NCBI GenBank assembly: GCA_035454625.1
Contig: DATIGP010000098.1
Location: 9,391 to 73,390, forward strand
Length of the DNA: 64,000 nt
Reading direction: 5' to 3'
Origin: Nitrospira sp.
Lineage (GTDB): Bacteria; Nitrospirota; Nitrospiria; Nitrospirales; Nitrospiraceae
In this document: piece by piece, positions 1 through 15,896 of the stretch
Position numbering within the stretch: the stretch's first letter is position 1
How the letters are laid out: each line of letters opens with the position of its first letter
The notes under the pieces: model-generated
The model's input: the letters and a program-made list of their open reading frames with translations, nothing else
Told to the model about the DNA's origin: nothing
Databases searched by the model: none
Program-made: the position numbers and the translations under genes

Positions 1-1738
1 TCTCAACTCGTTGCCCGACCGGCGCCCGCAGGACGATGCGGAACTGACTCTCATCGGAAACCGGCAGGAACTCCGTCCCGATCATCGGAATCAAGGTAAG
101 TGACCCGACAAAGATCAGCAGCACCATGGTAATAAAGATCCGCCGATGTCCCAGAACCCACTGCAACGCCTCCTCGTAGCCTCTATCGAGAGACTCATAT
201 CGACGACGGCTCCACTCCATCATTGCGATAAACCAAGCCGGCATGGTCCGCCTTACGTCTTGTTCAGCCTTGAGGAACTTGTAGCAGAGCGCCGGCGTGA
301 CCGTTCGTGAGACCAGGAAAGAAGTAAAGAGCGCAATGGCAATCGTCACGGTGAGCGGTATCAACAACAGACGCGCGACCCCGACGACGAAGAACATCGG
401 GAGGAAGACCACCACGGTGGTGACGGTTGAAGCAAAGATCGGCATCGCCACTTCTCGGGCCGCGTCGAGAATGCCGTTCCACCGGTTGGGATTTGCATTG
501 AGGTGGCGCTGGATGTTCTCCAGCTCCACGATGGAATCGTCGACAAGCCGGCCGATCCCAAGCGCGAGTCCGCCGAGGGTGAAGACGTTGAGAGTCTGAC
601 CCGTAAAATAGAGCACAATAAATGTGACGAGCATGGAAAGAGGAATGGCTACGGAGATGATCGCGGTACTCGTGAGATTGCGCAAGAAGATCAGAATGAC
701 GGCCGCGGCCAACAGCGAACCGTGAAGAGCCTGTTCGATCAGATTGTTGATAGATTGACGGATATAGAGGGACTGATCGAATGAAATGCCGAGTTTGACT
801 CCTTCCGGGATGCCGAACATCCTGGGGATGGCCGCGCGCAGGGCGTCCACGACCTCGACCGTGTTGGCAATCGGTTGCTTGTTCACACGAAGAAACACCG
901 ATCTGGCTCCATCGGCATGGACGATGTTTGTTTGGATATCGGACGAGTCCGTCACGGTCCCGATGTCGCGCACGCGGACCGGATTGCCTTGCTGATTCAC
1001 CTTGACGATGACGTCTTGGATGGGCTCCACTGTCCGAAACTGGTTGTTCGTAAACACATTGTAGTCGAGGTTGCCGGCTTTGATGTCGCCGGAGGGCAGG
1101 ATCACATTGGCGGCTTTGACGGATCTCACAACGTCCAAAATGGAGAGCCCGCGGGCGCTGAGGAGCGCCGGATCGAGGTTGATATTGATCTGACGGATCT
1201 TGCCTCCTTCGACGGTTGCCGCTGCAACGTTGGCGATCTGCTCAATCTGCGGGGCGATCGTGTTGTAGGCGAGGTCGTACAGCGCCCGTTCGTCGAGCGC
1301 ATCACTTGAGACCGAAACGATCGAAACGGGTATGTTCGAGACATCGAACTTGACGATAAAGGGTTGGAGAATGCCGGGTGGGAGACTGTTTAGAATCTGG
1401 GTGATCCGCTGCATCACCTCCATTTGACCGACATTAATATCGGTCCCCCAGTTGAACCAGATCTGCACGGCTCCGAGGCCTTGTTTACTGAACGATTCGA
1501 CATGTTCCACATTCGACGCTGAACTGACGGCTTTTTCGATCGGGTATACTACGCTCTGTTCGATGTCCAGCGGAGGCGCTCCCTTATAAATGACACCGAC
1601 GAAAGCGACCGGAACCTGGATTTGCGGGAAGAGGTCAACCGGCAAGCGTTGGAGAGACGTCAGCCCCAATACCACCAGCGCGAGCGACAGCATCAGGATG
1701 CCGATGCGATTGCGTAATGCGAGTAGAGTCAGCCACAT
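1..1738 (-). CDS. RND efflux permease (AcrB/CusA/MdtB family), N-terminal part; runs off the window start
   Basis: Manual minus-strand translation from ATG 1738: MWLTLLALRNRIGILMLSLALVVLGLTSLQRLPVDLFPQI...GRLVDDSIVELENIQRH (RND TM4 D-D motif). Lies downstream of an MFP gene. Not in the ORF track because the stop is outside the window. Confidence 0.93.
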   Translation of the reverse strand, partial: MWLTLLALRNRIGILMLSLALVVLGLTSLQRLPVDLFPQIQVPVAFVGVIYKGAPPLDIEQSVVYPIEKAVSSASNVEHVESFSKQGLGAVQIWFNWGTDINVGQMEVMQRITQILNSLPPGILQPFIVKFDVSNIPVSIVSVSSDALDERALYDLAYNTIAPQIEQIANVAAATVEGGKIRQININLDPALLSARGLSILDVVRSVKAANVILPSGDIKAGNLDYNVFTNNQFRTVEPIQDVIVKVNQQGNPVRVRDIGTVTDSSDIQTNIVHADGARSVFLRVNKQPIANTVEVVDALRAAIPRMFGIPEGVKLGISFDQSLYIRQSINNLIEQALHGSLLAAAVILIFLRNLTSTAIISVAIPLSMLVTFIVLYFTGQTLNVFTLGGLALGIGRLVDDSIVELENIQRHLNANPNRWNGILDAAREVAMPIFASTVTTVVVFLPMFFVVGVARLLLIPLTVTIAIALFTSFLVSRTVTPALCYKFLKAEQDVRRTMPAWFIAMMEWSRRRYESLDRGYEEALQWVLGHRRIFITMVLLIFVGSLTLIPMIGTEFLPVSDESQFRIVLRAPVGQRVE

Positions 1739-1747
1739 ATCTGAAGA

Positions 1748-1820
1748 TCGTGAAACGTTAAACGTGCAACGTGCAACGCGGCAATAAGGTGCGAACTGCG
1801 TTGCGGTTCACGGTTTACGA
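1748..1820. repeat. Intergenic inverted repeat built of degenerate heptamers (GTGAAAC/GTTAAAC/GTGCAAC x2, with complementary units on the right arm)
   Basis: tcgtgaaacgttaaacgtgcaacgtgcaacgc ... gcgttgcggttcacggtttacga, between the MFP stop and the RND start. Confidence 0.6.
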
Positions 1821-1835
1821 ATAACAAGTTAGGCC

Positions 1836-3002
1836 TTATAACGGCTGGGTTTGAACCGGTGTGCCGTCATGTACGAGGTCTTTCCCTGCGACGATGACCC
1901 GTTCATCACCCGTCAAACCTTTGGTGATTTCTACGCGATTGCCGCTAAGGGCCCCGATCTCGACATCCACTCGACGGGCTTTCCCCTCTCGGACGACATA
2001 GACATATTGTGTATCTTCCAGCCGGCTGACGGCATCAATGGGAATCTGCAACGCTTGGCGATGAGTTCCCACCATCACGTCGACCCGGGCGAACATTCCG
2101 CCTTTTAGCCGGCGATCCCGGTTAGGTAAGTCAATTTCCACGGTCATTGTACGTGTCGCGCGATTCAAAGCCTGGACGATGCGCGTGACGGTACCTTCGA
2201 ACAGGTGGTCCGGATACGCTTCCGCACGGAGCTCTGCCTTCTGGCCTATCTTTACCAGAGGAATGTCCCGCTCTACGACTTCGATCAACACCCGGACCGT
2301 ATTGATGTCGTGCAGACTCATGATGCCCCGCGACATTGTCGAGGTACTTGCGGTGGCGCTGCTTACATAGGCTCCGGTATCTAAGTTTCGCTCTGCGATA
2401 TAACCGGAAAATGGAGCTCGGATGTAAGAGTACGCTAAGTTCGTCTCCGCCTGGGCTAGGGCCACCTTCATTTGATCGACCTGCGCCTGCAGGGATTCGT
2501 GTGCGGCTTTGGCGGCGTCGAAGTTCACCTCCGCATTATCCAGGTCTTGCTGGGAGACGAATTGGTCCTTAATCAGGGCCTGCATGCGATCGAACGTAAT
2601 TTTGGCGTTGCGAACCACCGCATCCTGTTGCGAGACCTTGGCTTTGGCGGCCGAAAGGTTGGCTTTTGCCTGATTGACGGCATGTTGATAGTCGGTATGG
2701 TCGATTTCAACGAGCAACTGATTCGCCTTGACGAAATCACCCTTATCGACATGCAGTTTGGCGATGTATCCATCGACCCGGGAAAAAATATTGACCACTT
2801 GATTAGGGGAGATGTCCGCCGTGTAGGTTAGCCGAATATCCAGATCTTGCCGTAGGGCGGACATAGTGCCTACCGTGATAAGTCGTGTCTTCTTCGTGTC
2901 GCTTTTTGCACCCGTACTCAGGCGAAAGACTACAAGCGCCATGATCGAGATGAAGATGACAACCCCAAGCGTTAGAAACGGGTGTCGGACGAGTCGACTC
3001 AT
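1836..3002 (-). CDS. RND efflux periplasmic adaptor (membrane fusion protein)
   Basis: 388 aa ORF. N-terminal TM, lipoyl half-motifs (SRVDGYIAKLHVDKGDFVKANQLL; IRAPFSGYI), coiled hairpin, beta-barrel. Confidence 0.93.
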   Translation of the reverse strand: MSRLVRHPFLTLGVVIFISIMALVVFRLSTGAKSDTKKTRLITVGTMSALRQDLDIRLTYTADISPNQVVNIFSRVDGYIAKLHVDKGDFVKANQLLVEIDHTDYQHAVNQAKANLSAAKAKVSQQDAVVRNAKITFDRMQALIKDQFVSQQDLDNAEVNFDAAKAAHESLQAQVDQMKVALAQAETNLAYSYIRAPFSGYIAERNLDTGAYVSSATASTSTMSRGIMSLHDINTVRVLIEVVERDIPLVKIGQKAELRAEAYPDHLFEGTVTRIVQALNRATRTMTVEIDLPNRDRRLKGGMFARVDVMVGTHRQALQIPIDAVSRLEDTQYVYVVREGKARRVDVEIGALSGNRVEITKGLTGDERVIVAGKDLVHDGTPVQTQPL

Positions 3003-3021
3003 GTGGTGCCTGTCGGATCAG

Positions 3022-3664
3022 TTAGAAATCCGGCGGCTGCCGGACGAACCCGCCGAGGAAAAGAGACACATATTGGATCACTGTGGCTTCATGGGACAGG
3101 TGCATGGGTAATCCGAAGATATCATGCAGTAGCCGATGGTGGAGGATGACACCAAAGAAGGCTTTGGCGGCAAGCACGGGGTCGACTGGGCGGAACGCGC
3201 CATCCTCGATGCGTCGGCGAATGTAGCCGACTAAGTGATCGTGAAAGACACGATATTGCTGAAAAAACTTGTTGGAACAGCTCATGTCCTTCCAAGGTAC
3301 TGAAAAGGAGGAGGCGAAACAATGCCGGACCTGCCCCCCTCCTTACTCGATAGTCGGCGAGCAACGTGAAGAGCCGTTCGTCATCTCGTCTCTTGGTAGC
3401 TTCTTCGACAGCTTCCCGCAGCCCGGAATATTGAGCCTTTTCTGCAAGAATTGCGGTGTACAATGCCTGCTTGGTCGGAAAGTGTTTGAAGCGCAGTGCC
3501 TCACTGCCACCGGCTGCCTTGGTGATTTGGTTCGTGGTCGTTCCGGTAAAGCCGTTTGCGGCAAACACCGATGTCACAGCACTGATCAGGCTGGCTTGCC
3601 GCTCATGACCTGAGGTTCGTGAGGGTTGACGCCGTTGAGGGGATGATATCCGTGTTCTACCCAC
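3022..3664 (-). pseudogene. TetR/AcrR-family regulator split by a +1 frameshift
   Basis: The HTH (GFTGTTTNQITKAAGGSEALRFKHFPTK) is in ORF 3122..3718. The C-terminal domain (SNKFFQQYRVFHDHLVGYIRRRIEDGAFRPVDP) is in ORF 3022..3285 in a shifted frame. Junction ~3262-3278. Confidence 0.8.
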
Positions 3665-3669
3665 GGTGA

Positions 3670-3718
3670 GTAAGTAATTACTGACCACAAAGTAGCATGA
3701 GACTTGTATCAATGACAA
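3670..3718 (-). promoter_or_regulatory. Putative sigma70 promoter (TTGTCA-N18-TACTTT, extended -10) with a downstream palindromic TetR-type operator
   Basis: -35 at 3718-3713 and -10 at 3694-3689. Near-palindrome GTAAGTAATTACTGAC at 3670-3685 just upstream of the GTG at 3664. Confidence 0.45.
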
Positions 3719-3876
3719 GGTAAGTGGATTAAACGCGGATTCGAAGGGTCGGGGTACGAAAGCCTTAGAAAAGGACAGAACATTGTGTGGCCTTATGGCG
3801 TTCAGGTGGCATCATCCTCAGCACCTTACTCATGGTGACATTTCCAGTCATCAGGAGGTGGTCGGCCATCAAACGA

Positions 3877-4314
3877 TTAGACCTGGGCCACTGATTGGGC
3901 GCAGAGATACGCCCGCATCCGATCACAATCACAGCGGCTCGCTTCCTTGAACTCCACACCAAATAGAGATCCCGCTGTCCAGGCGACCGTTGCTTCCGAA
4001 ACGAACAGGGGTTCCTCATCGTTCGGCAGATACAAAAACAAGGTTAGTTCCATACCCACGTTCACCGGACAATTTCCACGGATCCCCAACCCGCATTCGG
4101 ATAGGTCGACAACGCTACCGTCTCCAATGAGAACATCCTCCCCATGGACACCTGAGTACATAAGGCCAAGGGAGACACAAGTTCTGCCCATTCTACGGCG
4201 CTCGATTGATTGAGATGAGTGAATTGATTCCGATAGCCCTAAGTGCTTCTTGTGTTTCATCGCTCCACCTCCTGTCTGCAGGCCTATTTCGATTGGATTG
4301 CGATCCTCGGTCAT
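3877..4314 (-). CDS. PilZ-domain protein (c-di-GMP receptor)
   Basis: RRMGR (RxxxR) and DLSECG (D/NxSxxG) motifs, with a beta-barrel-like C-terminus (VAWTAGSLFGVEF). Confidence 0.8.
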   Translation of the reverse strand: MTEDRNPIEIGLQTGGGAMKHKKHLGLSESIHSSQSIERRRMGRTCVSLGLMYSGVHGEDVLIGDGSVVDLSECGLGIRGNCPVNVGMELTLFLYLPNDEEPLFVSEATVAWTAGSLFGVEFKEASRCDCDRMRAYLCAQSVAQV

Positions 4315-4613
4315 AATTGGCCAAGCACCAGTTCATCAAAATCTGGCAGCTTGCGTCTTCGGTCTGAAAAACGGTTCCTTTAGTTAGAGATTTCGTATGG
4401 ATGAAGGCTAGCGCTTAGAGTCAGTCTTGCCTTCCCACTGGAGGAGGGGGAGCGCACAATTCAGAAGGGGGGAGTATAGAGGATAAAAGAGAGTAACTCC
4501 ACGTGTCATGTAGCTGCTTTGAAGAATGGCTCTATACACAGTATGCCATGGCAAGCCTGTTCCTAGAAAGAACCCTGGCGATGTAGGCAGTGCACAATGG
4601 GGAGGACGTTGGA

Positions 4614-5021
4614 CTACATTAGTCGGAATCGGGTTCGTTGATCACTCACGGTGTTGTGGGAGATGCTTTTCCAAATGAAGGATTGCAGCCGCTTTCGGTG
4701 CTCTCGGGTCAGATCCATGAATCGGACAGAAAACTGACAACCTGACACCCACACAACATGCGCCGATTTCAATATAAGTTGGGGTAATCCATCGGGAAGT
4801 GCAATCGTAAGGGTCAATAATGTTCCCCGCGTCACTGGGCGGTCGCTGACGACATGGCACCCAGAAACAGATATGTTTTTTGTGAGGCCTTCGCCTTGGT
4901 GAGGTTGCGTCGGAACTTCCCCGACATAGCGCACTCGACACGTGACAGCGACACGTTCTGCATAACGGTTATCTAAAGGCACATAGGGTTTTCGGCCGTT
5001 CATCGTCAGTTTCACCATCAT
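4614..5021 (-). CDS. PilZ-domain protein
   Basis: RYAER and NISVSG motifs; VVWVSGCQFSVRF. Confidence 0.82.
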   Translation of the reverse strand: MMVKLTMNGRKPYVPLDNRYAERVAVTCRVRYVGEVPTQPHQGEGLTKNISVSGCHVVSDRPVTRGTLLTLTIALPDGLPQLILKSAHVVWVSGCQFSVRFMDLTREHRKRLQSFIWKSISHNTVSDQRTRFRLM

Positions 5022-5153
5022 ATCCTTGTCTACAATCTTTTCCCACCCAATTCAGCAATATGGTTCGGCCACGAGGAGCGACCTGATACACGATCTATGA
5101 AGAAAAGAATATCTTCGCAGGCGGGAGTGGTACTTCCGTACGATGAAAACAAA

Positions 5154-6872
5154 TTACTGCCGGATCTTTGCCCAGGCTTTTTGGTATTCCTCGAAGGAAT
5201 CGACCTCCATCCATCCCTTGAAAATCGGTACAGCTTGGGTGTGATGGCCCTGGTCAATCAGCTCTTGCAGCATATCAGTAAAAGAGGCTTTGGACAGGCT
5301 TGCTGATTCGTGGAACGGGGATGACTCATGTTGTTTCTGGACGCGGTGATAGCACTCGCGAAGGGCTTGAGTTCCTTTCTCCGAGAACATGGCCATACCG
5401 ATGAATTCCCCATGCGCCTGTTCGCGCGGAAGTTGTTGGCCGATCTTCACCACCTGGTGCTCACCTTCCGGCATGACAAATCGGGACAAATAACTTTTGC
5501 CGGGTGGGGTGGCCAGTGAGACAAGGTCCGGATTAAGATGAGTCGGTTGAATATTCCGTTGTTCCTGATCAAACCAGGCTAAATCAACAACCAACGCAAT
5601 GTCGGCGGGGCTCTTGAGCAATTTCTCAAGAATCGAGGTATCAAAGATGATATCGCCGTACAGGACGATGGTCCGCCCGCGCAACTCATTTTCGGCACAA
5701 AAGAGCGAAACGAGCTCGCCCGTTTCCTCGTAACGGTCGTTATCGTAGTAGCGGATGTTGGGGAGCGAAATGGCTTCTTTTTTATACCCGCGAACCAAGG
5801 CGATTTCTTTGATGTCGCATTCGTTGAGCGCGCTGACCTGGCGATCGAGGATCGTTCGCCCTTTAATGTCGAGCAAGCACTTCGGCTTGTCTTCGATCAA
5901 CGGCAGGAGCTGTTTTTCGAATCCGGCGGCGGCGATAATCGCCGTAATTCGTTCGCTACCCATCGGCAAGAACCGTTTCTCATCTTGCTCCATTTCCGGG
6001 ACGCCGACGATGTCGTACACTTGAGGTAGCGTGACGATTCGGTCGTTGGCCGCGCCGGGGCGCGAGTCCTTCTTGATGAGATCCAACGTGTCCGTCATTG
6101 CTTGAATTGCGGCCCGTACCGGTTGGTTGGCATAGATAATGATCTTCGCACCGGCTTCTTCCATTTCCGCCGCAGTGGTCTGATCGAAAATCGTCGGAAC
6201 AACGACCAGCGGGACGCGTCCGGACCACATTTTGTACACGGCCTTCAGCTCGTCGAATTTTTTCGATTTCGAATGGATCAGGATTGCGTCCGCTCCCGCG
6301 TCGGCATACGCTTCGGCCCGCCTCAAGGCTTCCTCTTGTCCCCAACCGGCGATGAGAGCCTCCGTCCTGGCGATAACCATGAACTCCGGGGAAGTTTGAG
6401 CGGCTTTGGCCGCTCGAATCTTGCCGCAGTGTTCCTCAATGGGGATCAATTCGCGTCGAACGCCCGCGTAGAAACTGCAGCGTTTTGGATAGACGTTGTC
6501 TTCAATACAAATGGCAGCCACGCCGGCTCGCTCACGGTCTGTGACGGTCCGCATGACGTTCAGCGCGTTGCCGTAACCGGTGTCGCAGTCCGCGATCACG
6601 GGAATGCTCACGGCCTCAACGATATTGCGTTCGATGTCGAGCTGCTCGCTCGAAGTGATAAAACTGGCGTCAGGGATGCATTTAAGCGAGGCGGAAATGG
6701 CAAAGCCGCTCGCCCAGACACCGTCGAAGCCGGCGCGTTCGATGAGACGGGCGCTGAGTGCATCGTGCGCACCGACTACTCTCAAGGCCCCCGGCTTTTT
6801 TAATGCAGCTCGAAGTTTTGCGGCGTTGGTCATCAAGGACAACATGATGGGAAAGCGTGTGGCTGTTGTCAA
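5154..6872 (-). CDS. PEP mutase / isocitrate-lyase superfamily enzyme fused to a C-terminal nucleotidyltransferase domain (probable start 6833)
   Basis: GAHDALSA, WASG, ADCDTGYG, ARTEALIAGWG, DAILIHSK, VPT and YANQ match the PepM/phosphonopyruvate hydrolase clade. The C-terminal half has IIAAAG..KPKCLL..KG, YGDIIF and WMEVDSFEEY. Confidence 0.88.
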   Translation of the reverse strand: MTTATRFPIMLSLMTNAAKLRAALKKPGALRVVGAHDALSARLIERAGFDGVWASGFAISASLKCIPDASFITSSEQLDIERNIVEAVSIPVIADCDTGYGNALNVMRTVTDRERAGVAAICIEDNVYPKRCSFYAGVRRELIPIEEHCGKIRAAKAAQTSPEFMVIARTEALIAGWGQEEALRRAEAYADAGADAILIHSKSKKFDELKAVYKMWSGRVPLVVVPTIFDQTTAAEMEEAGAKIIIYANQPVRAAIQAMTDTLDLIKKDSRPGAANDRIVTLPQVYDIVGVPEMEQDEKRFLPMGSERITAIIAAAGFEKQLLPLIEDKPKCLLDIKGRTILDRQVSALNECDIKEIALVRGYKKEAISLPNIRYYDNDRYEETGELVSLFCAENELRGRTIVLYGDIIFDTSILEKLLKSPADIALVVDLAWFDQEQRNIQPTHLNPDLVSLATPPGKSYLSRFVMPEGEHQVVKIGQQLPREQAHGEFIGMAMFSEKGTQALRECYHRVQKQHESSPFHESASLSKASFTDMLQELIDQGHHTQAVPIFKGWMEVDSFEEYQKAWAKIRQ

Positions 6873-6910
6873 TGAAAACTTTTTCCGGTCCTGGAGTAAG
6901 CAGCGTCGAA

Positions 6911-7435
6911 CTACTCCGCGGAATCGGTAATGTCATCGTTGAACCGTGGGGCGAGCGTGCGACTATCGAGGAAAATATAGCCACGCTCTGTGCCGCCCTG
7001 ATAGGTGAGGTTGATTTCAGTGTCGCTTCCACGCCAGTTGTACTGCTGGGTGAGGCCGCGCGCCATTTGTCCGGGAACGCGCTCGAGCCGACCGAATCGA
7101 CTTTCCAAGAAGCTCAGCATCTGCCGATGGACTTGGTCTCCTTGATATCGAATGATGACGCGCGCGAATTGGTCGTCCACCGCGACATAGAGAACGTTGC
7201 TCGTTTCGATTCCCGCGAAAGATGACGGTTCGGTCTTGCGGAGATATTCCGCGATATGCGGACCTGCGTGTAGCGGTTCCAGATCAGGACGCATGGACAG
7301 GGAGGATCCCCAAGGAATATCGTGAAATCCTTTCGGGTCATTCGTCATAGGGACCGCCCATACTGGGCTGATCAGAGCCGCGATCATCATGACGAACGGC
7401 CACGTATGGGATGCTGATCGGATGGGCTCGATCAT
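6911..7435 (-). CDS. Hypothetical exported protein
   Basis: 195 aa ORF, likely start MIEPIRS. Hydrophobic signal-like stretch (FVMMIAALISPVWA) followed by a soluble domain (NDPKGFHDIPWG). Confidence 0.65.
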   Translation of the reverse strand: MIEPIRSASHTWPFVMMIAALISPVWAVPMTNDPKGFHDIPWGSSLSMRPDLEPLHAGPHIAEYLRKTEPSSFAGIETSNVLYVAVDDQFARVIIRYQGDQVHRQMLSFLESRFGRLERVPGQMARGLTQQYNWRGSDTEINLTYQGGTERGYIFLDSRTLAPRFNDDITDSAE

Positions 7436-7511
7436 CTCAGCTGGAGCTTCCTTTGTGTACAGGTATTTAACGCTAACATGCGAGGGAAGCCAACACAACG
7501 GCGAATCTTTC

Positions 7512-7541
7512 TTGAGAAGCTCGCTGAACGTATCTTATAAT
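7512..7541 (+). promoter_or_regulatory. Putative sigma70 promoter of the decarboxylase/aminotransferase/cytidylyltransferase operon
   Basis: TTGAGA (7512-7517), 18-nt spacer, perfect TATAAT (7536-7541). Confidence 0.55.
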
Positions 7542-7586
7542 GCGCCGATTTTTACGGGCTGTACCAATATCCCAGGGGAAATCCCA

Positions 7587-8084
7587 ATGATGGAAAGTGA
7601 CGTGTTCGTGCAATCTATGCAAGACATGGGGGTCAATTTTTTCACCGGCGTACCGGATTCGATCCTGGGCGGAATCATTGCGGAACTCATGAACCGCCGA
7701 CTCTATACCCCCGCGGTTCGGGAGGATGAAGCGGTCGGTATGGCTGCGGGCGCGTATATGGCCGGAAAAACCCCCGCCGTGCTGATGCAGAATTCGGGAC
7801 TCGGCACCTCTCTCAATACGCTCATTTCTCTTAACGTGATCTATAAACAACCCTGCATCCTGATCGTTTCATGGCGGGGCCAAGGAGGCAAGGATGCGCC
7901 TGAACATTTGGTGATGGGAGAAGTGATGCCGCAATTGCTCGATACCGTCAAAATCCCGCATCGTACCTTGACTGAAAAAACGGCCATTGAAGATTTCAGG
8001 TGGGTGGCTCAGACGTTCATGCAGCGACAGATTCCCGTCGCGTTGTTCATCACCAAGGGGGTCGTGAAGGGGTTGCATCCGTGA
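7587..8084 (+). CDS. Phosphonopyruvate/sulfopyruvate decarboxylase alpha subunit (Ppd-N / ComD-like)
   Basis: FFTGVPDS, REDEAVGMAAG, MQNSGLG, WRG..DAPEH motifs. Confidence 0.88.
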   Translation: MMESDVFVQSMQDMGVNFFTGVPDSILGGIIAELMNRRLYTPAVREDEAVGMAAGAYMAGKTPAVLMQNSGLGTSLNTLISLNVIYKQPCILIVSWRGQGGKDAPEHLVMGEVMPQLLDTVKIPHRTLTEKTAIEDFRWVAQTFMQRQIPVALFITKGVVKGLHP

Positions 8085-8662
8085 GGCCCGAGCAAGGCAC
8101 ATTGATCAGCCGGGCCCAGGCCATGGCGGCCTTGCTGGAGTTGCTGACCGATCAACCCGTCGTTATCTGCAACGGGTTTCCCTCGCGCGAGGCTCACAAG
8201 GTCGCGGATCGACCCACCCATTTCTACATGATCGGCTCCATGGGGAACGCCCCCGCGATCGCGCTCGGTGTCGCACTCGCCAAACCGAATAAACAGGTGA
8301 TCACCTTCGATGGCGACGGAAATGTATTGATGGGAATGGGGACGCTCGCAACGGTGGGTGCCTTGAAACCGAAGAATTTCATCCACGTCGTACTCGACAA
8401 CGAAGTGTACGGAACGACCGGAAACCAGCCGACAATCTCCAACGTGGTACCGCTGGAGAAAGTGGCGATGTCGGCGGGCTACGTGAATGTGGAGCGGGTG
8501 CGTGATCGCGACGATCTGGTCTACGAGTTCAGAAACATGCTGAAAAAAGACGGCCCCAGCATGTTGCTCATCAAGGTGAACGAATTTGTGGAAGATGCCG
8601 GCCGGGTCCTGCTCGATCCGCCGGACATCACCCGCCGGTTCATGAAAGCGATTGAGCGATAG
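8081..8662 (+). CDS. Phosphonopyruvate/sulfopyruvate decarboxylase beta subunit (TPP-binding; Ppd-C / ComE-like)
   Basis: FYMIGSMG, TPP motif DGDG...LDN and TTGNQPT. GTG start overlaps the alpha-subunit stop. Confidence 0.88.
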   Translation: MRPEQGTLISRAQAMAALLELLTDQPVVICNGFPSREAHKVADRPTHFYMIGSMGNAPAIALGVALAKPNKQVITFDGDGNVLMGMGTLATVGALKPKNFIHVVLDNEVYGTTGNQPTISNVVPLEKVAMSAGYVNVERVRDRDDLVYEFRNMLKKDGPSMLLIKVNEFVEDAGRVLLDPPDITRRFMKAIER

Positions 8663-8809
8663 GAAGCCCGATAGGCTTTCGTCGTACTCGTCGACCGCGC
8701 ACGATTCGGGCAAGACGGATCCCGGCGACGCGGGTGGAATGAGCGTGCTCGGTCATGCGCGCAATAAGGGACGCGCATTGCGCTTCCTGAGGATGAAGAA
8801 GGAAGAAAA

Positions 8810-9892
8810 GTGATTCTCCTCAATCCCGGTCCTGTGAATGTCTCTGAACGGATACGGCAGGCTTTGGTGAAGCCCGATATCTGCCATCGGGAAGATGAAT
8901 TCTACGAATTGCTTCACCGCATCCAAGCCAAGCTGCTCAAGGCCTTTGTCCCAGGAGCTGAGTCGGACTACGTCGCCGTCGTGATGACGGGATCGGGGAC
9001 GGCCGCCGTCGAAGCGGCCTTGATGTCGTCACTCCCTCACGGCCGCCGTATGCTCATCCTCAATAACGGCGTCTATGGTGAACGGATGTCTCAAATCGTG
9101 GGGCTCAATCGTCTGGGGGTGAGCGAGTTGAAGTATGAATGGACGAGTCGTCCCGATCCGGAAAAATTGCTTCTTGCCTTGCGACAGCACCAGGAAGTGC
9201 ATGCCGTCGGCATGGTGCATCATGAGACCACCACCGGCCTCCTCAATCCCGTCCACGAGATCGCCGAAATCGTCGATAATCAAAATCGGGTATTCGTGCT
9301 CGATGCCGTCAGCGCTCTGGCGGGCGAGACGATCGACATTGCACGGTCGCACATCTATATGGTGGCGGGGACGGCCGGAAAGTGTATCCAGGGGTTTCCA
9401 GGGGTCTCCTTCGTGCTCGTGCGGAAGGGGTTCATCGAGAAAATGCGCTCGTACCCGAAGCGCTCGTGGTATCTCCATCTCACCCATTACATCGACAACG
9501 ACGGGCGAGGCACGATTCCTTTCACGCCCGCGGTACAGGTCTACTATGCTTTCGACGAAGCGCTCGACGAGCTTCTCGAAGAAGGCGTGGCCAATCGCAT
9601 CCAACGGTACAAAAAGATGGCGGCCCTGATCCGTGAACGAATGGCTAAGCTTGGTGTCAAGGCCCTTCTTCCGGCGGACCGGCAATCGAATACCATCACG
9701 GCCTATCACCTGCCGGATGGTATGTCCTACCGGACGTTACATGACCGCCTCAAGCAGCAGGGGTATGTCATTTATGCCGGTCAAGGCAACTTGGAAAACA
9801 AGATCTTCCGCGTGGCCAATATGGGGGCTTTATCCGAGGCGCAGTTCGGCGGGTTCCTCGACGCCTTCGAGCACGTGTGCAAATCATCATGA
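8810..9892 (+). CDS. Class V PLP aminotransferase, 2-aminoethylphosphonate transaminase-like (AepZ/PhnW family)
   Basis: LLNPGPV, GSGTAAVE, NNGVYGER, HHETTTG, DAVS, PLP lysine in GKCIQGFPG, PFTP, IYAGQG. Confidence 0.88.
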   Translation: MILLNPGPVNVSERIRQALVKPDICHREDEFYELLHRIQAKLLKAFVPGAESDYVAVVMTGSGTAAVEAALMSSLPHGRRMLILNNGVYGERMSQIVGLNRLGVSELKYEWTSRPDPEKLLLALRQHQEVHAVGMVHHETTTGLLNPVHEIAEIVDNQNRVFVLDAVSALAGETIDIARSHIYMVAGTAGKCIQGFPGVSFVLVRKGFIEKMRSYPKRSWYLHLTHYIDNDGRGTIPFTPAVQVYYAFDEALDELLEEGVANRIQRYKKMAALIRERMAKLGVKALLPADRQSNTITAYHLPDGMSYRTLHDRLKQQGYVIYAGQGNLENKIFRVANMGALSEAQFGGFLDAFEHVCKSS

Positions 9893-10608
9893 AGGCCGTC
9901 ATCCTTGCAGCGGGGGTCGGAAAACGTCTGTGGGAGGTCACCCAACACCGTCCGAAATGTCTCATCGAGATCGGGGGGCGTTCGCTCCTGCGGCGCTACT
10001 TGGAGTCGCTAGCCTCCGTCGGCATTCGCCGCGCGGAGATCGTCGTCGGGTACAAACAGGAGATGATTCGTGCGGCGGTCGAGCAGGATGCGTGCGGTGT
10101 CAAGGTCACGTTCTTGGTCAACGAACAATTTCACAGAGGCAGTATTTCGTCACTGTGGATTGCCCGAACGGCGCTCGATGACGATATCATCGTGATGGAC
10201 GCCGACGTGCTGTTTCATCCGGAGATCCTCCGGCGTCTGGTGTCCTCGCCCTCTGAAAATGCGTTGTTGATGGATGAGACGGTAAAGCAGACCGGAGAAG
10301 AATGCATGGTGGTCGTGGCGGGGGGGCGAGTGATCGCACTGACAAAGAACATGCCGGAACAGTATGACCATGCCGGTGAAGGGGTGGGATTTCTTCGGGT
10401 TCGGCATGCCGACACGCCTCGCGTCGTCTCATCGCTCCGAAGCTGCATCGACAGAGGCTCGTGGGATATGGAGTACGAAGACGCGCTGCGGCAGTATTTT
10501 CAGGACGTGCGGGTCGGTTATGAACGGATCGGGGGACTGCCTTGGACCGAGATCGATTTTATCGAAGACGTAAGAAAAGCGGAATTGGAAGTTTTGCCAA
10601 GATTATGA
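9889..10608 (+). CDS. Phosphocholine/phosphonate cytidylyltransferase-family nucleotidyltransferase (LicC/PntC-like)
   Basis: MKAVILAAGVGKRL...PKCL, MDADV, GEGVG, WTEIDFIED. ATGA overlap with the aminotransferase. Confidence 0.87.
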   Translation: MKAVILAAGVGKRLWEVTQHRPKCLIEIGGRSLLRRYLESLASVGIRRAEIVVGYKQEMIRAAVEQDACGVKVTFLVNEQFHRGSISSLWIARTALDDDIIVMDADVLFHPEILRRLVSSPSENALLMDETVKQTGEECMVVVAGGRVIALTKNMPEQYDHAGEGVGFLRVRHADTPRVVSSLRSCIDRGSWDMEYEDALRQYFQDVRVGYERIGGLPWTEIDFIEDVRKAELEVLPRL

Positions 10609-10629
10609 GAAAGTCATCAACATGGTAGG

Positions 10630-12132
10630 ATGTCCGAGAAAACGAAATCTGCGCAAGGGACCACCGGGCCAGCAGACACAGTTGTCGATGGAACCATGAG
10701 TAAGAGCGTCCTTCAACGGAAGGCCGAAATCCAAGGACTGGCGACGGCGATTCTGTTGCCGTCTGAAGGGGTCTTCGGCGGTCCGACCGACCAACCCGTA
10801 GGCGACGTGGGGCCCCTAACAAGCGTCGTGGGGATCGGGCTCTTTCAACGAACCGTGCTCACGTTGCAACGGGCCGGGATTCGCCAATTAATCGTCCTTT
10901 CCGGTTCGGAGGAGGAGCAGCTGAAACAAGCGCTCGGCAAAGGGCCGCGCGTCACGATTCCCGTCCGCTGGATGCCGATCCGTGAATTTCCCCTCGATGA
11001 TCCTCGGACATGGGAAGCCTTGGCGGCCGAAGTGCATGGCTTTGCGCTGATTACGGGCGTCAATAGCGTGTTCTCTCGAGGGCTGATCGAACAGCTGCGA
11101 CGCGACGTGCAGGACGGCCAGGCCATCGTGGTCTCCCAAGCCTCACCGGAGCAGGTCGATCGGGTCATGGTGCAAGGCGTGCGATCGAAAGTCCGGTCCG
11201 GTCGCCCGGCGGCCCTCGCTCTTCCTTGTTTCGACGATCCGGCCCTGCGTGTCGCTGAGCTGGTCGTCGTGCCGGCAAGCCTGATGAGCAACGCCAGTCA
11301 AGCGGCGAGCGAGAAGGGAGGCCCCCCGATCCGCCAGTGGCTGGACCGGGCCGCGGCGGATGGTCGAGTGCGTATTGTCTCGGCTGGAGAAAAGCGGGGG
11401 AATTGGTATCACGCAGTCCGGACCAGGGCCGACGTCCAAACGGCCGAAAAGAAGTTGTTCAGTTCGCTCAAAGGTGAATTCGAAGGCTTTGTCGATCGCT
11501 ATTTCAATCGCAAGGTCTCTCGCTGGTTCACGCGCCTCTTTCTCGTCATGGGGCTCTCCCCCAATTCCATCACGGTCCTCGCCGGATTGATCGGTTTGGT
11601 TGCCGCCGCCGGCTTTGGAATGGGTACGTACAGCACCGGTATCATGGCCGCCCTCTTGTTTCAATTGGCGGCTGTCATCGATTGTTGCGACGGAGAAGTC
11701 GCGCGGTTGACCTTTACCGAATCGCCCTTCGGTGCCTGGCTCGATATTGTCTTGGACAACATCGTGCACATGGCGATTTTTGGCGGCATTGCCGTGGGAC
11801 TTTATACGGCCCACATCGGACAGGCAGATGACTGGGTCCCTCTCGCGCTGGGTGTGGCGGCGGTGTTCGGCAACGGCCTCTCATTTTTACTTGTCGAAAG
11901 AGCGCAAAAGGTTAAATCGCTGAATGGCTGGAGAAGCCCGGCCCATGCCGCGTGGGCGGACGTCATGTTGAAAAATGTCGCCAGCCGGGATTTCTCAGCG
12001 GCCTTACTGGGCTTTGCCCTGTTCGATCAGCTCTATTGGTTTCTACTCTTTGCAGCAGCAGGCTCCTGGCTGTTTGCCGGCGCCATGATATGGGTCATCC
12101 GCCCATCTGCCGTCTCATCTCCTCGGCCATAA
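10630..12132 (+). CDS. CDP-alcohol phosphotransferase with a large N-terminal nucleotidyltransferase-like domain
   Basis: Signature DCCDGEVAR-x8-GAWLDIVLD, GFVDRYFNR and SPNSIT, with multiple TM helices. N-terminal VVGIGLFQRTVLTLQRAGIRQLIV resembles a degenerate NTase. Confidence 0.85.
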   Translation: MSEKTKSAQGTTGPADTVVDGTMSKSVLQRKAEIQGLATAILLPSEGVFGGPTDQPVGDVGPLTSVVGIGLFQRTVLTLQRAGIRQLIVLSGSEEEQLKQALGKGPRVTIPVRWMPIREFPLDDPRTWEALAAEVHGFALITGVNSVFSRGLIEQLRRDVQDGQAIVVSQASPEQVDRVMVQGVRSKVRSGRPAALALPCFDDPALRVAELVVVPASLMSNASQAASEKGGPPIRQWLDRAAADGRVRIVSAGEKRGNWYHAVRTRADVQTAEKKLFSSLKGEFEGFVDRYFNRKVSRWFTRLFLVMGLSPNSITVLAGLIGLVAAAGFGMGTYSTGIMAALLFQLAAVIDCCDGEVARLTFTESPFGAWLDIVLDNIVHMAIFGGIAVGLYTAHIGQADDWVPLALGVAAVFGNGLSFLLVERAQKVKSLNGWRSPAHAAWADVMLKNVASRDFSAALLGFALFDQLYWFLLFAAAGSWLFAGAMIWVIRPSAVSSPRP

Positions 12133-12156
12133 TGGCGCGTCCGCCATTCGACTAAC

Positions 12157-13164
12157 GTGTTGCGCTACATTTTACTGGCCCTTGGCCTCATCGTCCTGAG
12201 CCTTCTCGTCTGGCATATCGGTCCCGCCAATATTTACGAGGCCGCGACACGACTCGGTCCTACTGCCTTGCTCGCCGTCCTCATCCCCTCGGTCGTCATG
12301 TATTCCGTTGAAGCCTATGGGTGGAAAGTCGTGTTGGGACGAGCCGCCCGTGGAATTCCGTTTTGGCGACTGCTGACGATTCGGACCGCCGGCGAGGTGG
12401 TGAATATGACGACTCCGACGGCCTATCTGGGAGGCGAACCGCTGAAAGCCTATCTGCTCAAAAGACACGACGTGCCCATGGCGGAGGGAGCCGCGTCGGT
12501 CGTGATTGCGAAGACGACCATGACGATCGCCGAAGTGTTCTATATCCTCACGGGTATCGCCCTAGCTTTTTGGATTTTGGGGGCCGGCAGCTCCGCGGGG
12601 CAGACGATCACGGCGGCACTGCTGAGTGTTGGATTGCTCGTGTGTTCAATCGCGGGATTTGTTTTTATCCAACAGCGCGGGCTTTTTGCATCGATTCTGT
12701 CATTGGTGAAGAAACTGGGCGTACGAATCCAGTTTCTGGAAACGCAGGAGGAACACCTGCGCTCGATCGACCAGACGATCCGGAATTTCTACAGCCACCA
12801 TCAAAAAGCCTTTTATGCTTCGATGGGGGTGTACTTTTTGGGTTGGATGGCAGAATCGTTGGAGGTGTTCGGGATCATCTACTTGCTCGGCGGTTCGGTC
12901 AGCATCTTGTCCGCCCTCTCCATCGGTGCGCTCGCGGTGTTCATCAAGGGCGGCTCTTTCTTCATCCCCGGCAGTTTGGGCGCTCAGGATGCCGGCAATC
13001 TCCTGCTGCTCCAGGCTTTCGGCTACAGTGACGTGACAGGCATCACGTTTGCGCTGCTGCGGCGGTTTCGTGAGCTGGTGTGGATCGGCATCGGGCTGTT
13101 GTGCTTGGCAATGGTAGGAAAAGCCCGGATACCGCAGGCTCAAGAAGGGGAAAATTCTTCCTGA
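12157..13164 (+). CDS. Lysylphosphatidylglycerol-synthase TM / flippase-like protein (UPF0104/AglD2 family)
   Basis: Polytopic membrane ORF with GEVVNMTTP..LGGEPLKAYLL, IPGSLGAQD and LLRRFRELVW. Confidence 0.8.
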   Translation: MLRYILLALGLIVLSLLVWHIGPANIYEAATRLGPTALLAVLIPSVVMYSVEAYGWKVVLGRAARGIPFWRLLTIRTAGEVVNMTTPTAYLGGEPLKAYLLKRHDVPMAEGAASVVIAKTTMTIAEVFYILTGIALAFWILGAGSSAGQTITAALLSVGLLVCSIAGFVFIQQRGLFASILSLVKKLGVRIQFLETQEEHLRSIDQTIRNFYSHHQKAFYASMGVYFLGWMAESLEVFGIIYLLGGSVSILSALSIGALAVFIKGGSFFIPGSLGAQDAGNLLLLQAFGYSDVTGITFALLRRFRELVWIGIGLLCLAMVGKARIPQAQEGENSS

Positions 13165-13625
13165 GCAATGGTCCGAAGCCGTTCGAGCATGCGATCCCAC
13201 ACAAAGCCGTGGAGCCGAAAATCCGCCGCCCGCTCCACCTTGTGAAACTGAAGTCCCATTCGATTCCCCAGGACCCATCGGACCTCCGCCTCTTCAACCG
13301 GGAGTGACTGTGTTTGATCGGGGAGGATCAGCCGTATACGGAGTGTGGTCCGCTGCGGCGCGGCACCGTCACACTCGATCGCACAGCCGAATACCGTGAG
13401 ATTCATCACCTTCCCTTCCGCGATCGTTTCCGCATCGGAAAACATCACGGGATACTGCACGGCGAGAGGGACTCGGTAGTGATTTCGAAAATAAGGACGT
13501 GTGGGTTCCACGGTGGCCCAGTCTAGTCGGCCTCGCGCGGCAGAATGAATCCCCCTTTCGCGGGGACAAGCAGCGTTTCTCGGAGTTGCCCGGAGCCTTA
13601 CACGATGAAGGGCGCGCCCATTCAC
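13140..13625 (-). CDS. PilZ-domain protein
   Basis: RNHYR and NLTVFG motifs; AEVRWVLGNRMGLQF. Confidence 0.75.
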   Translation of the reverse strand: MNGRALHRVRLRATPRNAACPRERGIHSAARGRLDWATVEPTRPYFRNHYRVPLAVQYPVMFSDAETIAEGKVMNLTVFGCAIECDGAAPQRTTLRIRLILPDQTQSLPVEEAEVRWVLGNRMGLQFHKVERAADFRLHGFVWDRMLERLRTIAQEEFSPS

Positions 13626-14020
13626 GCCGAGTAGTGCTTATTCAGGAGTTCACGTTGGAATTGGATGATATGCCTGATCAGCAGTTCTCGATCTTGATTG
13701 GCTATCCTGACGAAGCGTCCGTGGAGGCGGTAGGTGTTGGATGGATAGGTGATGGGATCGACGCGCAGCACCTCAAGAGACGACTTGAAGAGCACTTGGC
13801 CGGGAAGGAGCAGGGTGCAGGTGAGGATTGCGCCCACCTCGAAGACTTGGTTTAGGGTGATGCCGATGCCGCCTCCGCTGATGTTGACGGACCGCTGGAG
13901 GAGCGTGGCCTCCGCCTCGTCGCCCTCAACCTGAAGACAGATCGGCAAGGGAACGGTGATGCGATAAAACTCTCGACGATCTTTTGGAGACGGCTGCGGA
14001 GGCGGGGGATCCGATGGCAT
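13622..14020 (-). CDS. PilZ-domain protein
   Basis: REFYR and NISGGG motifs. Stop overlaps the next PilZ start. Confidence 0.8.
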   Translation of the reverse strand: MPSDPPPPQPSPKDRREFYRITVPLPICLQVEGDEAEATLLQRSVNISGGGIGITLNQVFEVGAILTCTLLLPGQVLFKSSLEVLRVDPITYPSNTYRLHGRFVRIANQDRELLIRHIIQFQRELLNKHYSA

Positions 14021-14578: not shown

Positions 14579-15896
14579 CTACGGCTGATGCCCCACCCGA
14601 CGGCCGATGACGTCCATCATGGGTTTGATGAGGGGTAGTTCTTGGAAGAGTTCGTGGGAAATCGGTTCGACGTCCCGCGCCTCCTTGAGCGGCTTCATAA
14701 AGAGGACGGTCACGGCGAGGCGCAGAAGACCCGAGGCCAAAAAGATGACCGGGAGGTTCGAAGCGAAATGCACCTCGAAGGATCCGATAATTATTTCGGG
14801 CGTGAGCACGGTACTGAGCCATCCGCCAAGCATGGTCCCCATAAACGTGCTCGTCGCAATAACACCATTGCTCAGGGCGACCGCGCCGGCCCGCTCTTCA
14901 CTCTTCACGAGGTCGTAGACGATGTTCTGAAGCCCGAGACTGAAGCCGGACCAGAGCATGCCCGCCAAGCCATTGATCACGATGAGCCACCACACGTCTT
15001 CTGTCGTGAGGTAAAGCAACGGCAGGATCGGCAGTCCGGAACCCGGTCGTCATCAGCAGTTTGCGATTTCCGTACAGATCGCCGATGCGGCCCCAACCGT
15101 TAATGGTGAGAAATCCCCCGATGACCGAGGCTGCGGCCCACAGGGAATATTCCATGTACGACAGATGCAAATCGCGAAGCAGGTAGACGGCGAAGTAGGG
15201 ACCGGCGAGCAGGGCGCTGATATGCATGAAGCCGGAAAACAGCAGAAAGCGCATGAAGGCTTCGTGTCGCCCCGCCACGACAAAGTCTTTGAAGCGAAGG
15301 CTCAGGTGCTCAGTGACCGGCCCATCGGATTCATCGAGTCGCTGAAGATAATGGGCTGCAAGGCCACGGGCAACCGCAGCAAGCAGGAACAGGATGGTAA
15401 ACCCGACCCAGGTCGCTTGCAGGTGTTCGGTCCAGCTCAACAGCAGTCCTCCCCCGATCAAGGCGGTAAAGCTTATGGCCGACGTGATACGGGCGCGCTT
15501 GGCGAAATATGTCCCACGGGTGTCGGGATTGAGCAGGTGGGTGATCAAACTGTTCCAGGCTGGAATGGAGAAATGCCCTACGACGACGAGCGGCACGGCG
15601 CAGGCGATAACGAGGGTGGCGCCGTATTCCGGAAAGATAAATGGAAGGATGAGCAGCGGCAGCCAGAGGGCGGCCTGTGCCGCGGCTCCGGCGACGACGA
15701 TCAAGCGCCGGTGATCGAACCAACGCAACCACATGACGGATCCGAATTGAGCAAAGGTGCCGACAAAGGCCGGTAACGCATTCAACATCCCGATCTGGGA
15801 GGTGGTGGCATTGAATGTGAGGGAGAAGGCGGTGAAGAAATTTTCCCCGGCTCCCTGCATGACTGCCGTGCAAGCGCCGCCGGACGGCAGCGGCAT
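14579..15896 (-). pseudogene. MFS transporter split by a frameshift
   Basis: ORF 14898..15896 (VMQGAGENFF..., WGRIGDLYGNRK motif A) continues in a shifted frame at ~15039 (GF/GLPILPLLYLTTE) into ORF 14579..15019. Confidence 0.75.

Follow-up and report, generated by a model that had tools for sequence, protein, structure and literature searches.

In ciliates, lipids of 2-aminoethylphosphonate (AEP) arise from CMP-AEP through EPT/CEPT-type CDP-alcohol phosphotransferases, and Nitrosopumilus maritimus makes methylphosphonate esters by way of the phosphoenolpyruvate (PEP) mutase PepM and the phosphonopyruvate decarboxylase Ppd, with MpnS as the downstream enzyme. We know of no characterised bacterial CMP-AEP:lipid transferase. 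The ‘Burkholderiales_CDP-OH’ families of Li and Horsman (2022), which are the Group 1 phosphonolipids of Yu et al. (2013), are built on a seven-gene core comprising a Ppm–PntC fusion, Ppd, an AEP transaminase (AEPT), an alpha-ketoglutarate/Fe(II) oxygenase, a further PntC and two genes of phospholipid biosynthesis, one for a CDP-alcohol phosphotransferase and one for a membrane protein (PMC8942020). A cluster from a lichen-associated Nostoc (PMC5987646, Fig. 7) contains genes for a CDP-alcohol phosphatidyltransferase, an NTP transferase, pepM, ppd, AEPT and hpnL, together with an oxoglutarate-Fe(II) oxidase. Here we describe a cluster of this kind at positions 5154–13164 of a 64,000-nucleotide stretch of Nitrospira sp. 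DNA (GenBank assembly GCA_035454625.1, contig DATIGP010000098.1, positions 9,391 to 73,390 of the forward strand; hereafter the window), whose PepM carries a cysteine in its gating loop (Cys loop).

The Nitrospira cluster holds six of the seven Group 1 core genes, including the PF12804-fused Ppm. It departs from that core in lacking the oxygenase and in having a Cys-loop PepM, a two-subunit Ppd and an extra gene, orfX; it has the genes listed above in common with the Nostoc cluster, except for the oxidase. Profile searches detected no alpha-ketoglutarate/Fe(II) oxygenase between or next to the PilZ-domain genes that flank the cluster and, because there is no oxygenase, AEP rather than 1-hydroxy-AEP is the predicted product. 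In its architecture the cluster is a variant without oxygenase of a known predicted type, not a new kind of cluster. What is new here is a conserved, widespread Cys-loop PepM that motif-based censuses leave out. A literature search returned no paper tying Nitrospira to phosphonate biosynthesis and no C–P chemistry for any Nitrospira.

The open reading frame (ORF) listing and profile searches place all the genes named in a preliminary description of this DNA within the span given above: a PEP-mutase-family gene, a split thiamine pyrophosphate-dependent decarboxylase, a class V aminotransferase, a cytidylyltransferase, a CDP-alcohol phosphotransferase and a flippase-like gene. The tight gene coupling claimed there can be read directly in the sequence, as a GTGA overlap at 8081–8084 and an ATGA overlap at 9889–9892. 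The pepM gene had also been called divergent from the operon; it does lie on the opposite strand, but not directly divergent, since orfX, which encodes a conserved 145-aa protein (6911–7348, minus strand), stands upstream of pepM on the same strand and separates it from the operon. The listed ORFs are over-extended, the likeliest starts being ATG 7587 for ppdA and GTG 8081 for ppdB. Scattering of the genes in relatives would have told against the preliminary reading, but it is not what is seen: the cluster is kept intact in Candidatus Nitrospira inopinata, N. tepida and many metagenome-assembled genomes (MAGs) of Nitrospiraceae, and is found in part in other phyla. Homologues that share 88% identity bear the name Nitrospira sp. 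Ca. N. inopinata, whose aminotransferase is CUQ65291.1, belongs to the same GTDB genus as the window organism, and N. japonica is likely to be another cultured carrier of the Cys-loop type, judging by an AEPT that clusters at 90% identity with a carrier genome.

A PepM-family protein with a cysteine in the gating loop

The pepM-like gene (5154–6872, minus strand; 572 aa) encodes a PepM domain (PF13714, 200.6 bits) fused to a C-terminal NTP_transf_3 nucleotidyltransferase (NT) domain, NT1 (PF12804, 39 bits; residues ~306–572). The reading frame opens at TTG 6872; orthologues align from about residue 10–14, and the start is probably ATG 6845. NT1 resembles LicC in its first ~108 residues only and, like most PepM-fused domains, canonical or not, has no GxGxR signature. 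The PepM domain has the same fold as canonical PepM (1M1B, 5UNC) and phosphonopyruvate hydrolase (2DUA), with 38–52% identity, and keeps their metal- and phosphoryl-binding residues except one. The 5UNC PepM is 52% identical to it and the hydrolase 47%; Mytilus PepM stands at 38% and a lyase-type relative at 35%. In the alignment, residues D58, D85, D87, E114, K120, S123, R159 and H190 of Mytilus PepM correspond to D68, D95, D97, E124, K130, S133, R169 and H200, and the equivalents of W44, S46 and G47 are also kept; the only differences from the Mytilus active site are C for N122, N for K116, R for T121 and F for both L124 and L48. TIGR02320 is the top model for the protein (273.4 bits), ahead of the hydrolase (265.7) and PrpB (199.4) models, although the protein stays below the cut-off of every NCBIfam equivalog.

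The gating loop, IEDNVYPKRCSFY, departs from the EDKX5NS motif by which PepMs are defined. Its codons, E124–S133 (EDNVYPKRCS), were placed at 6474–6503 on the minus strand by alignment to 1M1B, 5UNC and 2DUA; the corresponding loops are EDKRFPKVNS and EDKLFPKTNS in the solved PepMs and EDKTFPKDTS in the hydrolase. Cys132 (6477–6479) occupies the position of PepM Asn122, where isocitrate and methylisocitrate lyases hold their catalytic Cys (K-R-C-G-H). Three stand-alone homologues sampled in relatives, at ~35% identity, are of the lyase type, with the loop EDQVWPKRCGH. The 2013 PepM census of Yu et al. reportedly used EDKX5NS as well. The motif is the PepM criterion in Rice et al. 2019 (PMC6697681), Li and Horsman 2022 (PMC8942020) and a 2025 actinomycete survey (PMC12723261); Rice et al. 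dropped 22 fused proteins that lacked it (PMC6697681), and the filter of Li and Horsman would remove the Nitrospira protein because of its Cys loop.

Other explanations for the odd loop or its setting were rejected. A sequencing error or pseudogene is incompatible with a loop that is invariant in 30 orthologues and widespread across phyla. A hidden canonical PepM is rejected too: the genome of the window, 92% complete, encodes no second one, and PanB accounts for its only other PF13714 match. An arsenic analogue of the reaction (arsenoenolpyruvate to arsonopyruvate, as in the bisenarsan cluster) is dismissed on the absence here of genes for BsnN and the EPSP-synthase homologue (EPSP, 5-enolpyruvylshikimate 3-phosphate): in the bisenarsan cluster the C–As step is assigned to the phosphoglycerate-mutase homologue BsnN and the EPSP-synthase homologue, not to an enzyme of the isocitrate lyase/PepM family.

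Distribution of the cysteine loop

Because the window PepM fails both the defining motif and the equivalog cut-off, the first step of the pathway has to be argued from context. How widespread is the loop and what surrounds it? It is invariant in 30 Nitrospiraceae orthologues (77–93% identity). Cys takes the Asn122 position in 19 of the best 150 representatives at 50% identity, in 15 of them as ED[NS]..K.CS, in one as EDK..KRCS and in three as EDQ..KRC[GA]. A degenerate DNA pattern for the loop, scanned over species-representative genomes, matched at least 120 stretches, and the 80 loci that were examined span about 14 phyla; these 80 include loci of the cultured Sorangium cellulosum So ce56, of Sorangium So ce1099 and of Minicystis rosea. 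Ppd subunits adjoin the Cys-loop PepM in 47 of the 53 loci with enough flank, and outside Nitrospira genes for AEPT, the second nucleotidyltransferase (NT2), the phosphotransferase and an HpnL-like protein often accompany Ppd. The exceptions without adjacent Ppd are mainly from Binatia and Omnitrophota, in which the PepM–NT fusion stands alone.

Quick maximum-likelihood trees gather the canonical EDK..NS proteins, including Mytilus PepM, 5UNC and the hydrolase, into one clade (SH-aLRT 97–99) and leave the Cys-loop and EDN..NS proteins outside it. Lyase-type outgroups join among the Cys-loop and EDN..NS proteins, in a tree calculated without bootstraps and in which many inner branches are weak. 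As a lead from these sequence comparisons, the Cys loop may be an ancestral, lyase-like character.

Two Binatia MAGs illustrate a different setting. In loci L058 (4508–5473) and L077 (7031–7996) a Cys-loop PepM–NT fusion has no Ppd nearby; in L058 the next gene after the fusion encodes a protein of 321 aa that weakly matches squalene-hopene-cyclase domains, and a 321-aa ORF takes the same position in L077. The arrangement recalls the ‘phosphonoterpene’ speculation for Nitrosococcus (PMC8942020).

Two PepM types in Nitrospiraceae

Within the Nitrospiraceae, PepM–NT fusions come in two kinds, the Cys-loop type (68–93% identity) and a canonical type (~36% identity) with the loop IEDKLFPKTNSF. We sampled 151 genomes of the family, 133 with the CDP-alcohol phosphotransferase and 18 without it. 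Among the 133, the Cys-loop type alone is present in 74 and the canonical type alone in 52; one genome has both and six have neither, five of these six being less than 90% complete. The 18 genomes without phosphotransferase comprise 14 with neither type, four with the Cys-loop type (incomplete genomes) and none with the canonical type. Both states are found inside at least four genera, and several switches must therefore have occurred.

In six canonical-only genomes orfX, PpdAB, AEPT, NT2, phosphotransferase and HpnL are intact between the same PilZ flanks and pepM is missing; two of the six, same-genus genomes, hold remnants of the Cys-loop pepM that are broken by several in-frame stops and have lost internal segments, while the rest of the cluster is whole (L161, 15012–15526; L162, 4681–4956). 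Five of these six genomes have no Ppd homologue besides the PpdAB of the cluster, and for this reason the canonical PepM must feed the cluster in trans. The simplest reading of these sequence patterns is that the two PepM types look like interchangeable, isofunctional suppliers of phosphonopyruvate.

At L035 (G132:C1:1333800-1353700, 289–10826), in a genome without the Cys-loop gene, a canonical PepM–NT fusion adjoins a single-chain Ppd and exopolysaccharide export genes, namely two Poly_export/SLBB proteins, a Wzc-like kinase (GNVR/AAA_31) and a Bac_transf sugar transferase, which suggests a second, phosphonoglycan-type use of phosphonate in Nitrospiraceae. At L169 (G113:C9:9700-10900) a chimeric PepM-family gene lies by the cluster; its first ~120 residues are near-identical to the Cys-loop type. 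The remainder, unrelated in its details, has the loop GIEDTLQPARFGH and lacks an NT domain, and the gene has the look of a replacement by recombination.

Decarboxylase, aminotransferase and cytidylyltransferase

The putative phosphonopyruvate decarboxylase is split in two. ppdA (7587–8084, plus strand) encodes the alpha subunit (TPP_enzyme_N), which matches positions 1–156 of TIGR03297 with 129.5 bits, and ppdB (8081–8662, plus strand), joined to it by the GTGA overlap, encodes the beta subunit (TPP_enzyme_C), which matches positions 169–358 with 171.7 bits. On the sulfopyruvate decarboxylase models PpdA scores 114.2 bits (TIGR03845, alpha) and PpdB 183.5 bits (TIGR03846, cut-off 221.5), both below the cut-offs. 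The window's genome encodes no Ppd homologue apart from PpdAB, and genomic context favours Ppd over the sulfopyruvate decarboxylase ComDE.

The class V aminotransferase gene (8810–9892, plus strand) encodes an AEPT that matches TIGR03301 (PhnW-AepZ) over the full model length, and its orthologues are publicly annotated as AEP–pyruvate transaminase. It shares the ATGA overlap with the gene for the PntC-like cytidylyltransferase NT2 (9889–10608, plus strand). The best solved relative of NT2 is the Treponema denticola PntC Tde1415 (6PD1; E 4.7e-15), with LicC and IPCT next in line. Tde1415 is fused to AEPT (Rice et al. 2019, PMC6697681), whereas NT2 is a stand-alone protein of low identity to it. 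The GVGKRL loop of NT2 is canonical and the MEYE motif is retained. Of the two acidic residues with which Tde1415 binds the AEP amine, Glu196 corresponds to E201 in MEYE, and at the place of Glu104 NT2, like LicC, has an aspartate (Asp108).

Phosphotransferase and flippase-like protein

The CDP-alcohol phosphotransferase (10696–12132, plus strand; 478 aa, with an alternative start at the upstream ATG 10630) matches PF01066 with 40.5 bits, above the cut-off, and has a degenerate N-domain of NT fold. The catalytic signature Dx2DGx2ARx8Gx3Dx3D is intact, reading DCCDGEVARLTFTESPFGAWLDIVLD in the translation (11680–11757, plus strand); 26 phosphotransferase sequences, other phyla included, all share D329, D332, G333, A336, R337, G346 and D354, and at least 90% of them have D350. 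By sequence the nearest solved relatives are AF2299 and IPCT-DIPPS. A structural model (pLDDT 80.4) aligns with IPCT-DIPPS (4MND) over 472 columns, with TM scores of 0.61/0.70, and the fold also matches 4O6M. The Archaeoglobus fulgidus proteins IPCT-DIPPS (4MND) and AF2299 (4O6M) have the same combination of a cytoplasmic NT fold and a six-helix CDP-alcohol phosphotransferase, with the same catalytic signature. The Nitrospira protein differs from IPCT-DIPPS in that its N-domain lacks the NT signature, the cytidylyltransferase is a separate gene (NT2) and the predicted donor is CMP-AEP, not CDP-inositol. This N-domain, of ~245 aa, is a structural match to RmlA and MurU; it has no Pfam match and no GxGxR...K signature, and from its sequence it is probably non-catalytic.

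The last gene of the cluster (12157–13164, plus strand) encodes a membrane protein of the MprF-flippase/HpnL-like group (LPG_synthase_TM; PF03706, 115 bits against a cut-off of 33.4). It scores over the cut-off on TIGR00374 (62.8 against 43.2 bits) and under it on the HpnL model TIGR03476 (163.7 against 195.65 bits). The window's genome encodes a squalene-hopene cyclase, which keeps a hopanoid acceptor in view.

Proposed pathway and its alternatives

Based on these observations, we propose the following model for the cluster. The Cys-loop PepM domain would convert PEP to phosphonopyruvate, and the split PpdAB would decarboxylate it to phosphonoacetaldehyde, pulling the unfavourable mutase equilibrium forward. 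AEPT would then transaminate phosphonoacetaldehyde to AEP, which NT2 would activate with CTP to CMP-AEP, possibly assisted by the PepM-fused NT1. By analogy with IPCT-DIPPS, the phosphotransferase is predicted to move the aminoethylphosphonyl group from CMP-AEP to the hydroxyl of an acceptor, most likely diacylglycerol or another membrane lipid; the product would be an analogue of phosphatidylethanolamine resistant to phosphatases and phospholipases, and the MprF/HpnL-like protein may take it to the outer leaflet. The PepM step would thus fall to an early-branching lineage with a lyase-like K-R-C loop, interchangeable in Nitrospiraceae with a canonical PepM whose gene lies at another genomic site. 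The preliminary description had sketched the same route from PEP through AEP and CMP-AEP to transfer and flipping, and the route fits every family assignment and the synteny; PepM, for its part, fails on the motif and on the TIGR02320 cut-off. As a prediction, the preliminary interpretation is supported in part. The proposed outcome, a lipid with an AEP head group or an envelope decoration, agrees with a known predicted phosphonolipid-type gene set (PMC8942020, PMC5987646), while the class of acceptor is something we infer. We are confident that the cluster makes AEP, and its activation to CMP-AEP we hold to be likely. For the mechanism as a whole, in which AEP is made and attached to a membrane-associated alcohol, the balance tilts in favour. 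A lipid as the acceptor, suggested by the adjacent MprF/HpnL-type protein and the published classification, is an evenly poised question.

A number of observations weigh against the model. Besides the departure of the loop from EDKX5NS, the Asn122 position is precisely where, in the alignment, phosphonopyruvate hydrolase (Thr) differs from the mutase, and a review that cites Chen et al. 2006 (PMC3266647) puts the functional divergence of mutase and hydrolase down to a single active-site substitution. The PepM score of 273.4 bits is under the TIGR02320 cut-off of 319.55. The decarboxylase subunits score about equally on the sulfopyruvate decarboxylase (ComD/ComE) models and are each under the TIGR03297 cut-off of 312.5, which is for a single chain, and AEPT, with 348.8 bits (E 3.9e-104), narrowly misses the TIGR03301 cut-off of 360.8. 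The Fisher p of 6e-29 for the mutual exclusivity of Cys-loop and canonical PepM is not corrected for phylogeny. DIPPS and AF2299, the closest solved relatives of the phosphotransferase, use soluble polyols, and homology to them does not imply a lipid acceptor. Lastly, no phosphonolipid has ever been characterised from canonical Group 1 clusters (PMC8942020).

Could the Cys-loop protein be something other than a PEP mutase? It might cleave C–C or C–P bonds, hydrolyse phosphonopyruvate or form a different 3-substituted pyruvate, a sulfonate precursor for instance, in which case the decarboxylase and the aminotransferase would work on sulfopyruvate and sulfoacetaldehyde or on other analogues. The failed motif test speaks for this, as does the K-R-C sequence, which is a lyase loop; the tree with outgroups puts the Cys-loop proteins by lyase-type EDQ..KRCG(H) sequences and outside the canonical clade, and PpdB scores slightly higher on the sulfopyruvate decarboxylase beta model than on the Ppd model (183.5 against 171.7 bits). 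We nevertheless judge a non-mutase improbable. In 52 genomes a cluster devoid of the Cys-loop gene is paired with a canonical EDK..NS PepM, in none of the 151 genomes does the canonical form appear where the cluster is absent, and five of six canonical-only genomes examined have no Ppd besides the PpdAB of the cluster. All other phosphoryl- and metal-binding residues of PepM are kept, the aminotransferase fits an AEP-specific model along its full length, NT2 matches the AEP-specific PntC, and a hydrolase would have no source of substrate in the Cys-loop-only genomes. Selection on the loop, the breadth and context of its occurrence, the complementary distribution of the two types and the decay of pepM in place are what we would expect if the Cys-loop protein behaves as a PEP mutase, a conclusion drawn from comparative sequence data. 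A catabolic or salvage route, in which imported AEP or phosphonoalanine is processed and AEPT runs in the degradative direction, seems to us barely credible. AEPT (PhnW) is indeed reversible and its orthologues bear a catabolic name, but profile searches found no phosphonatase, PhnA/PhnY, C–P lyase or phosphonate transporter in or adjoining the cluster, the decarboxylation by Ppd is irreversible and biosynthetic, and cytidylyltransferase, phosphotransferase and flippase are anabolic functions.

The more substantial rival accepts that AEP is made and activated but places it on a non-lipid acceptor, such as a polyol or sugar phosphate (yielding a soluble solute), a hopanoid polyol or the precursor of an envelope glycan or protein, and the product would not be a phosphonolipid of diacylglycerol. 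IPCT-DIPPS and AF2299, the closest relatives in structure and sequence, act on soluble polyol phosphates, and NT2 also resembles IPCT. The last gene scores best on the HpnL model, which derives from hopanoid clusters, the genome has its squalene-hopene cyclase, and the Cys-loop PepM of Binatia adjoins a protein with a terpene-cyclase-like domain. Against a non-lipid acceptor stand the MprF-type, lipid-flippase-like protein that ends the cluster and co-occurs with the phosphotransferase in other phyla, the lack in AEP of the free hydroxyl needed for diesters like those made by DIPPS-type enzymes, and the classification, by prediction, of this gene set as phosphonolipid-type in the literature (PMC8942020, PMC5987646). 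On this evidence we find transfer to a non-lipid acceptor rather unlikely.

What are the implications of a Cys-loop PEP mutase? The broad claim would be that ED[NS]xxPK[RKV]CS proteins are widespread, early-branching, catalytically competent PEP mutases missed by EDKX5NS censuses, and that these globally abundant nitrifiers carry lipids with AEP head groups in their envelope; in this combined form the claim might go either way. If it holds, counts of phosphonate capacity have been systematically too low for Nitrospira, comammox members included, and for Methylomirabilota, Planctomycetota, Myxococcota, Acidobacteriota, Actinomycetota and others. Whole phyla together with a key guild of the nitrogen cycle would join the phosphonate producers, which bears on where environmental AEP comes from and on how phosphorus is cycled through its redox states in soils, freshwater, wastewater and the ocean. 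C–P bond formation would not depend on Asn122, the set of residues needed for phosphoryl transfer would have to be revised, and the Cys-loop proteins could plausibly represent an evolutionary stage between the superfamily's lyases and its mutases. An aminophosphonate lipid resistant to phosphatases and phospholipases could help slow-growing nitrifiers in biofilms. The cultured carriers Ca. N. inopinata and N. tepida make the question directly testable.

Surroundings of the cluster

The promoter-like site TTGAGA-18-TATAAT (7512–7541, plus strand), which matches at 11 of 12 positions and lies 46 nt before the ppdA ATG, is a candidate; scans of the region for sigma-70-like promoters and terminators gave counts not above those in shuffled sequence. 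An Rfam search of the intergenic regions at E up to 0.1 returned no riboswitch or other RNA element.

The orfX product has 48–83% identity in relatives and is found only in the Nitrospirota loci of this sample. It has no Pfam match, and comparison of its AlphaFold model (pLDDT 85.8) with the PDB gave no significant fold, the best Foldseek hit (E 3.7e-3, TM at most 0.46) being weakly PsbP/DcrB-like. The gene often occurs as two tandem paralogues, 30–45% identical to each other (L041, L056, L084, L105 and others), and is present in a single copy in the window.

Further out on the left are a gene for a HlyD/CusB-type membrane-fusion protein (1836–3002, minus strand) and one for a TetR-family regulator (3122–3718, minus strand), and to the right of the cluster lies a gene for an MFS transporter (14898–15896, minus strand). 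Nearest to the cluster are PilZ-domain genes (PF07238), two on the left (3877–4314 and 4614–5021, together 3877–5021, minus strand) and two on the right (13140–13625 and 13622–14020, together 13140–14020, minus strand), both flanks being conserved in relatives. These four stand-alone PilZ genes, two per side of a cluster whose flank is kept in relatives of the genus, hint at a neighbourhood linked to cyclic di-GMP.

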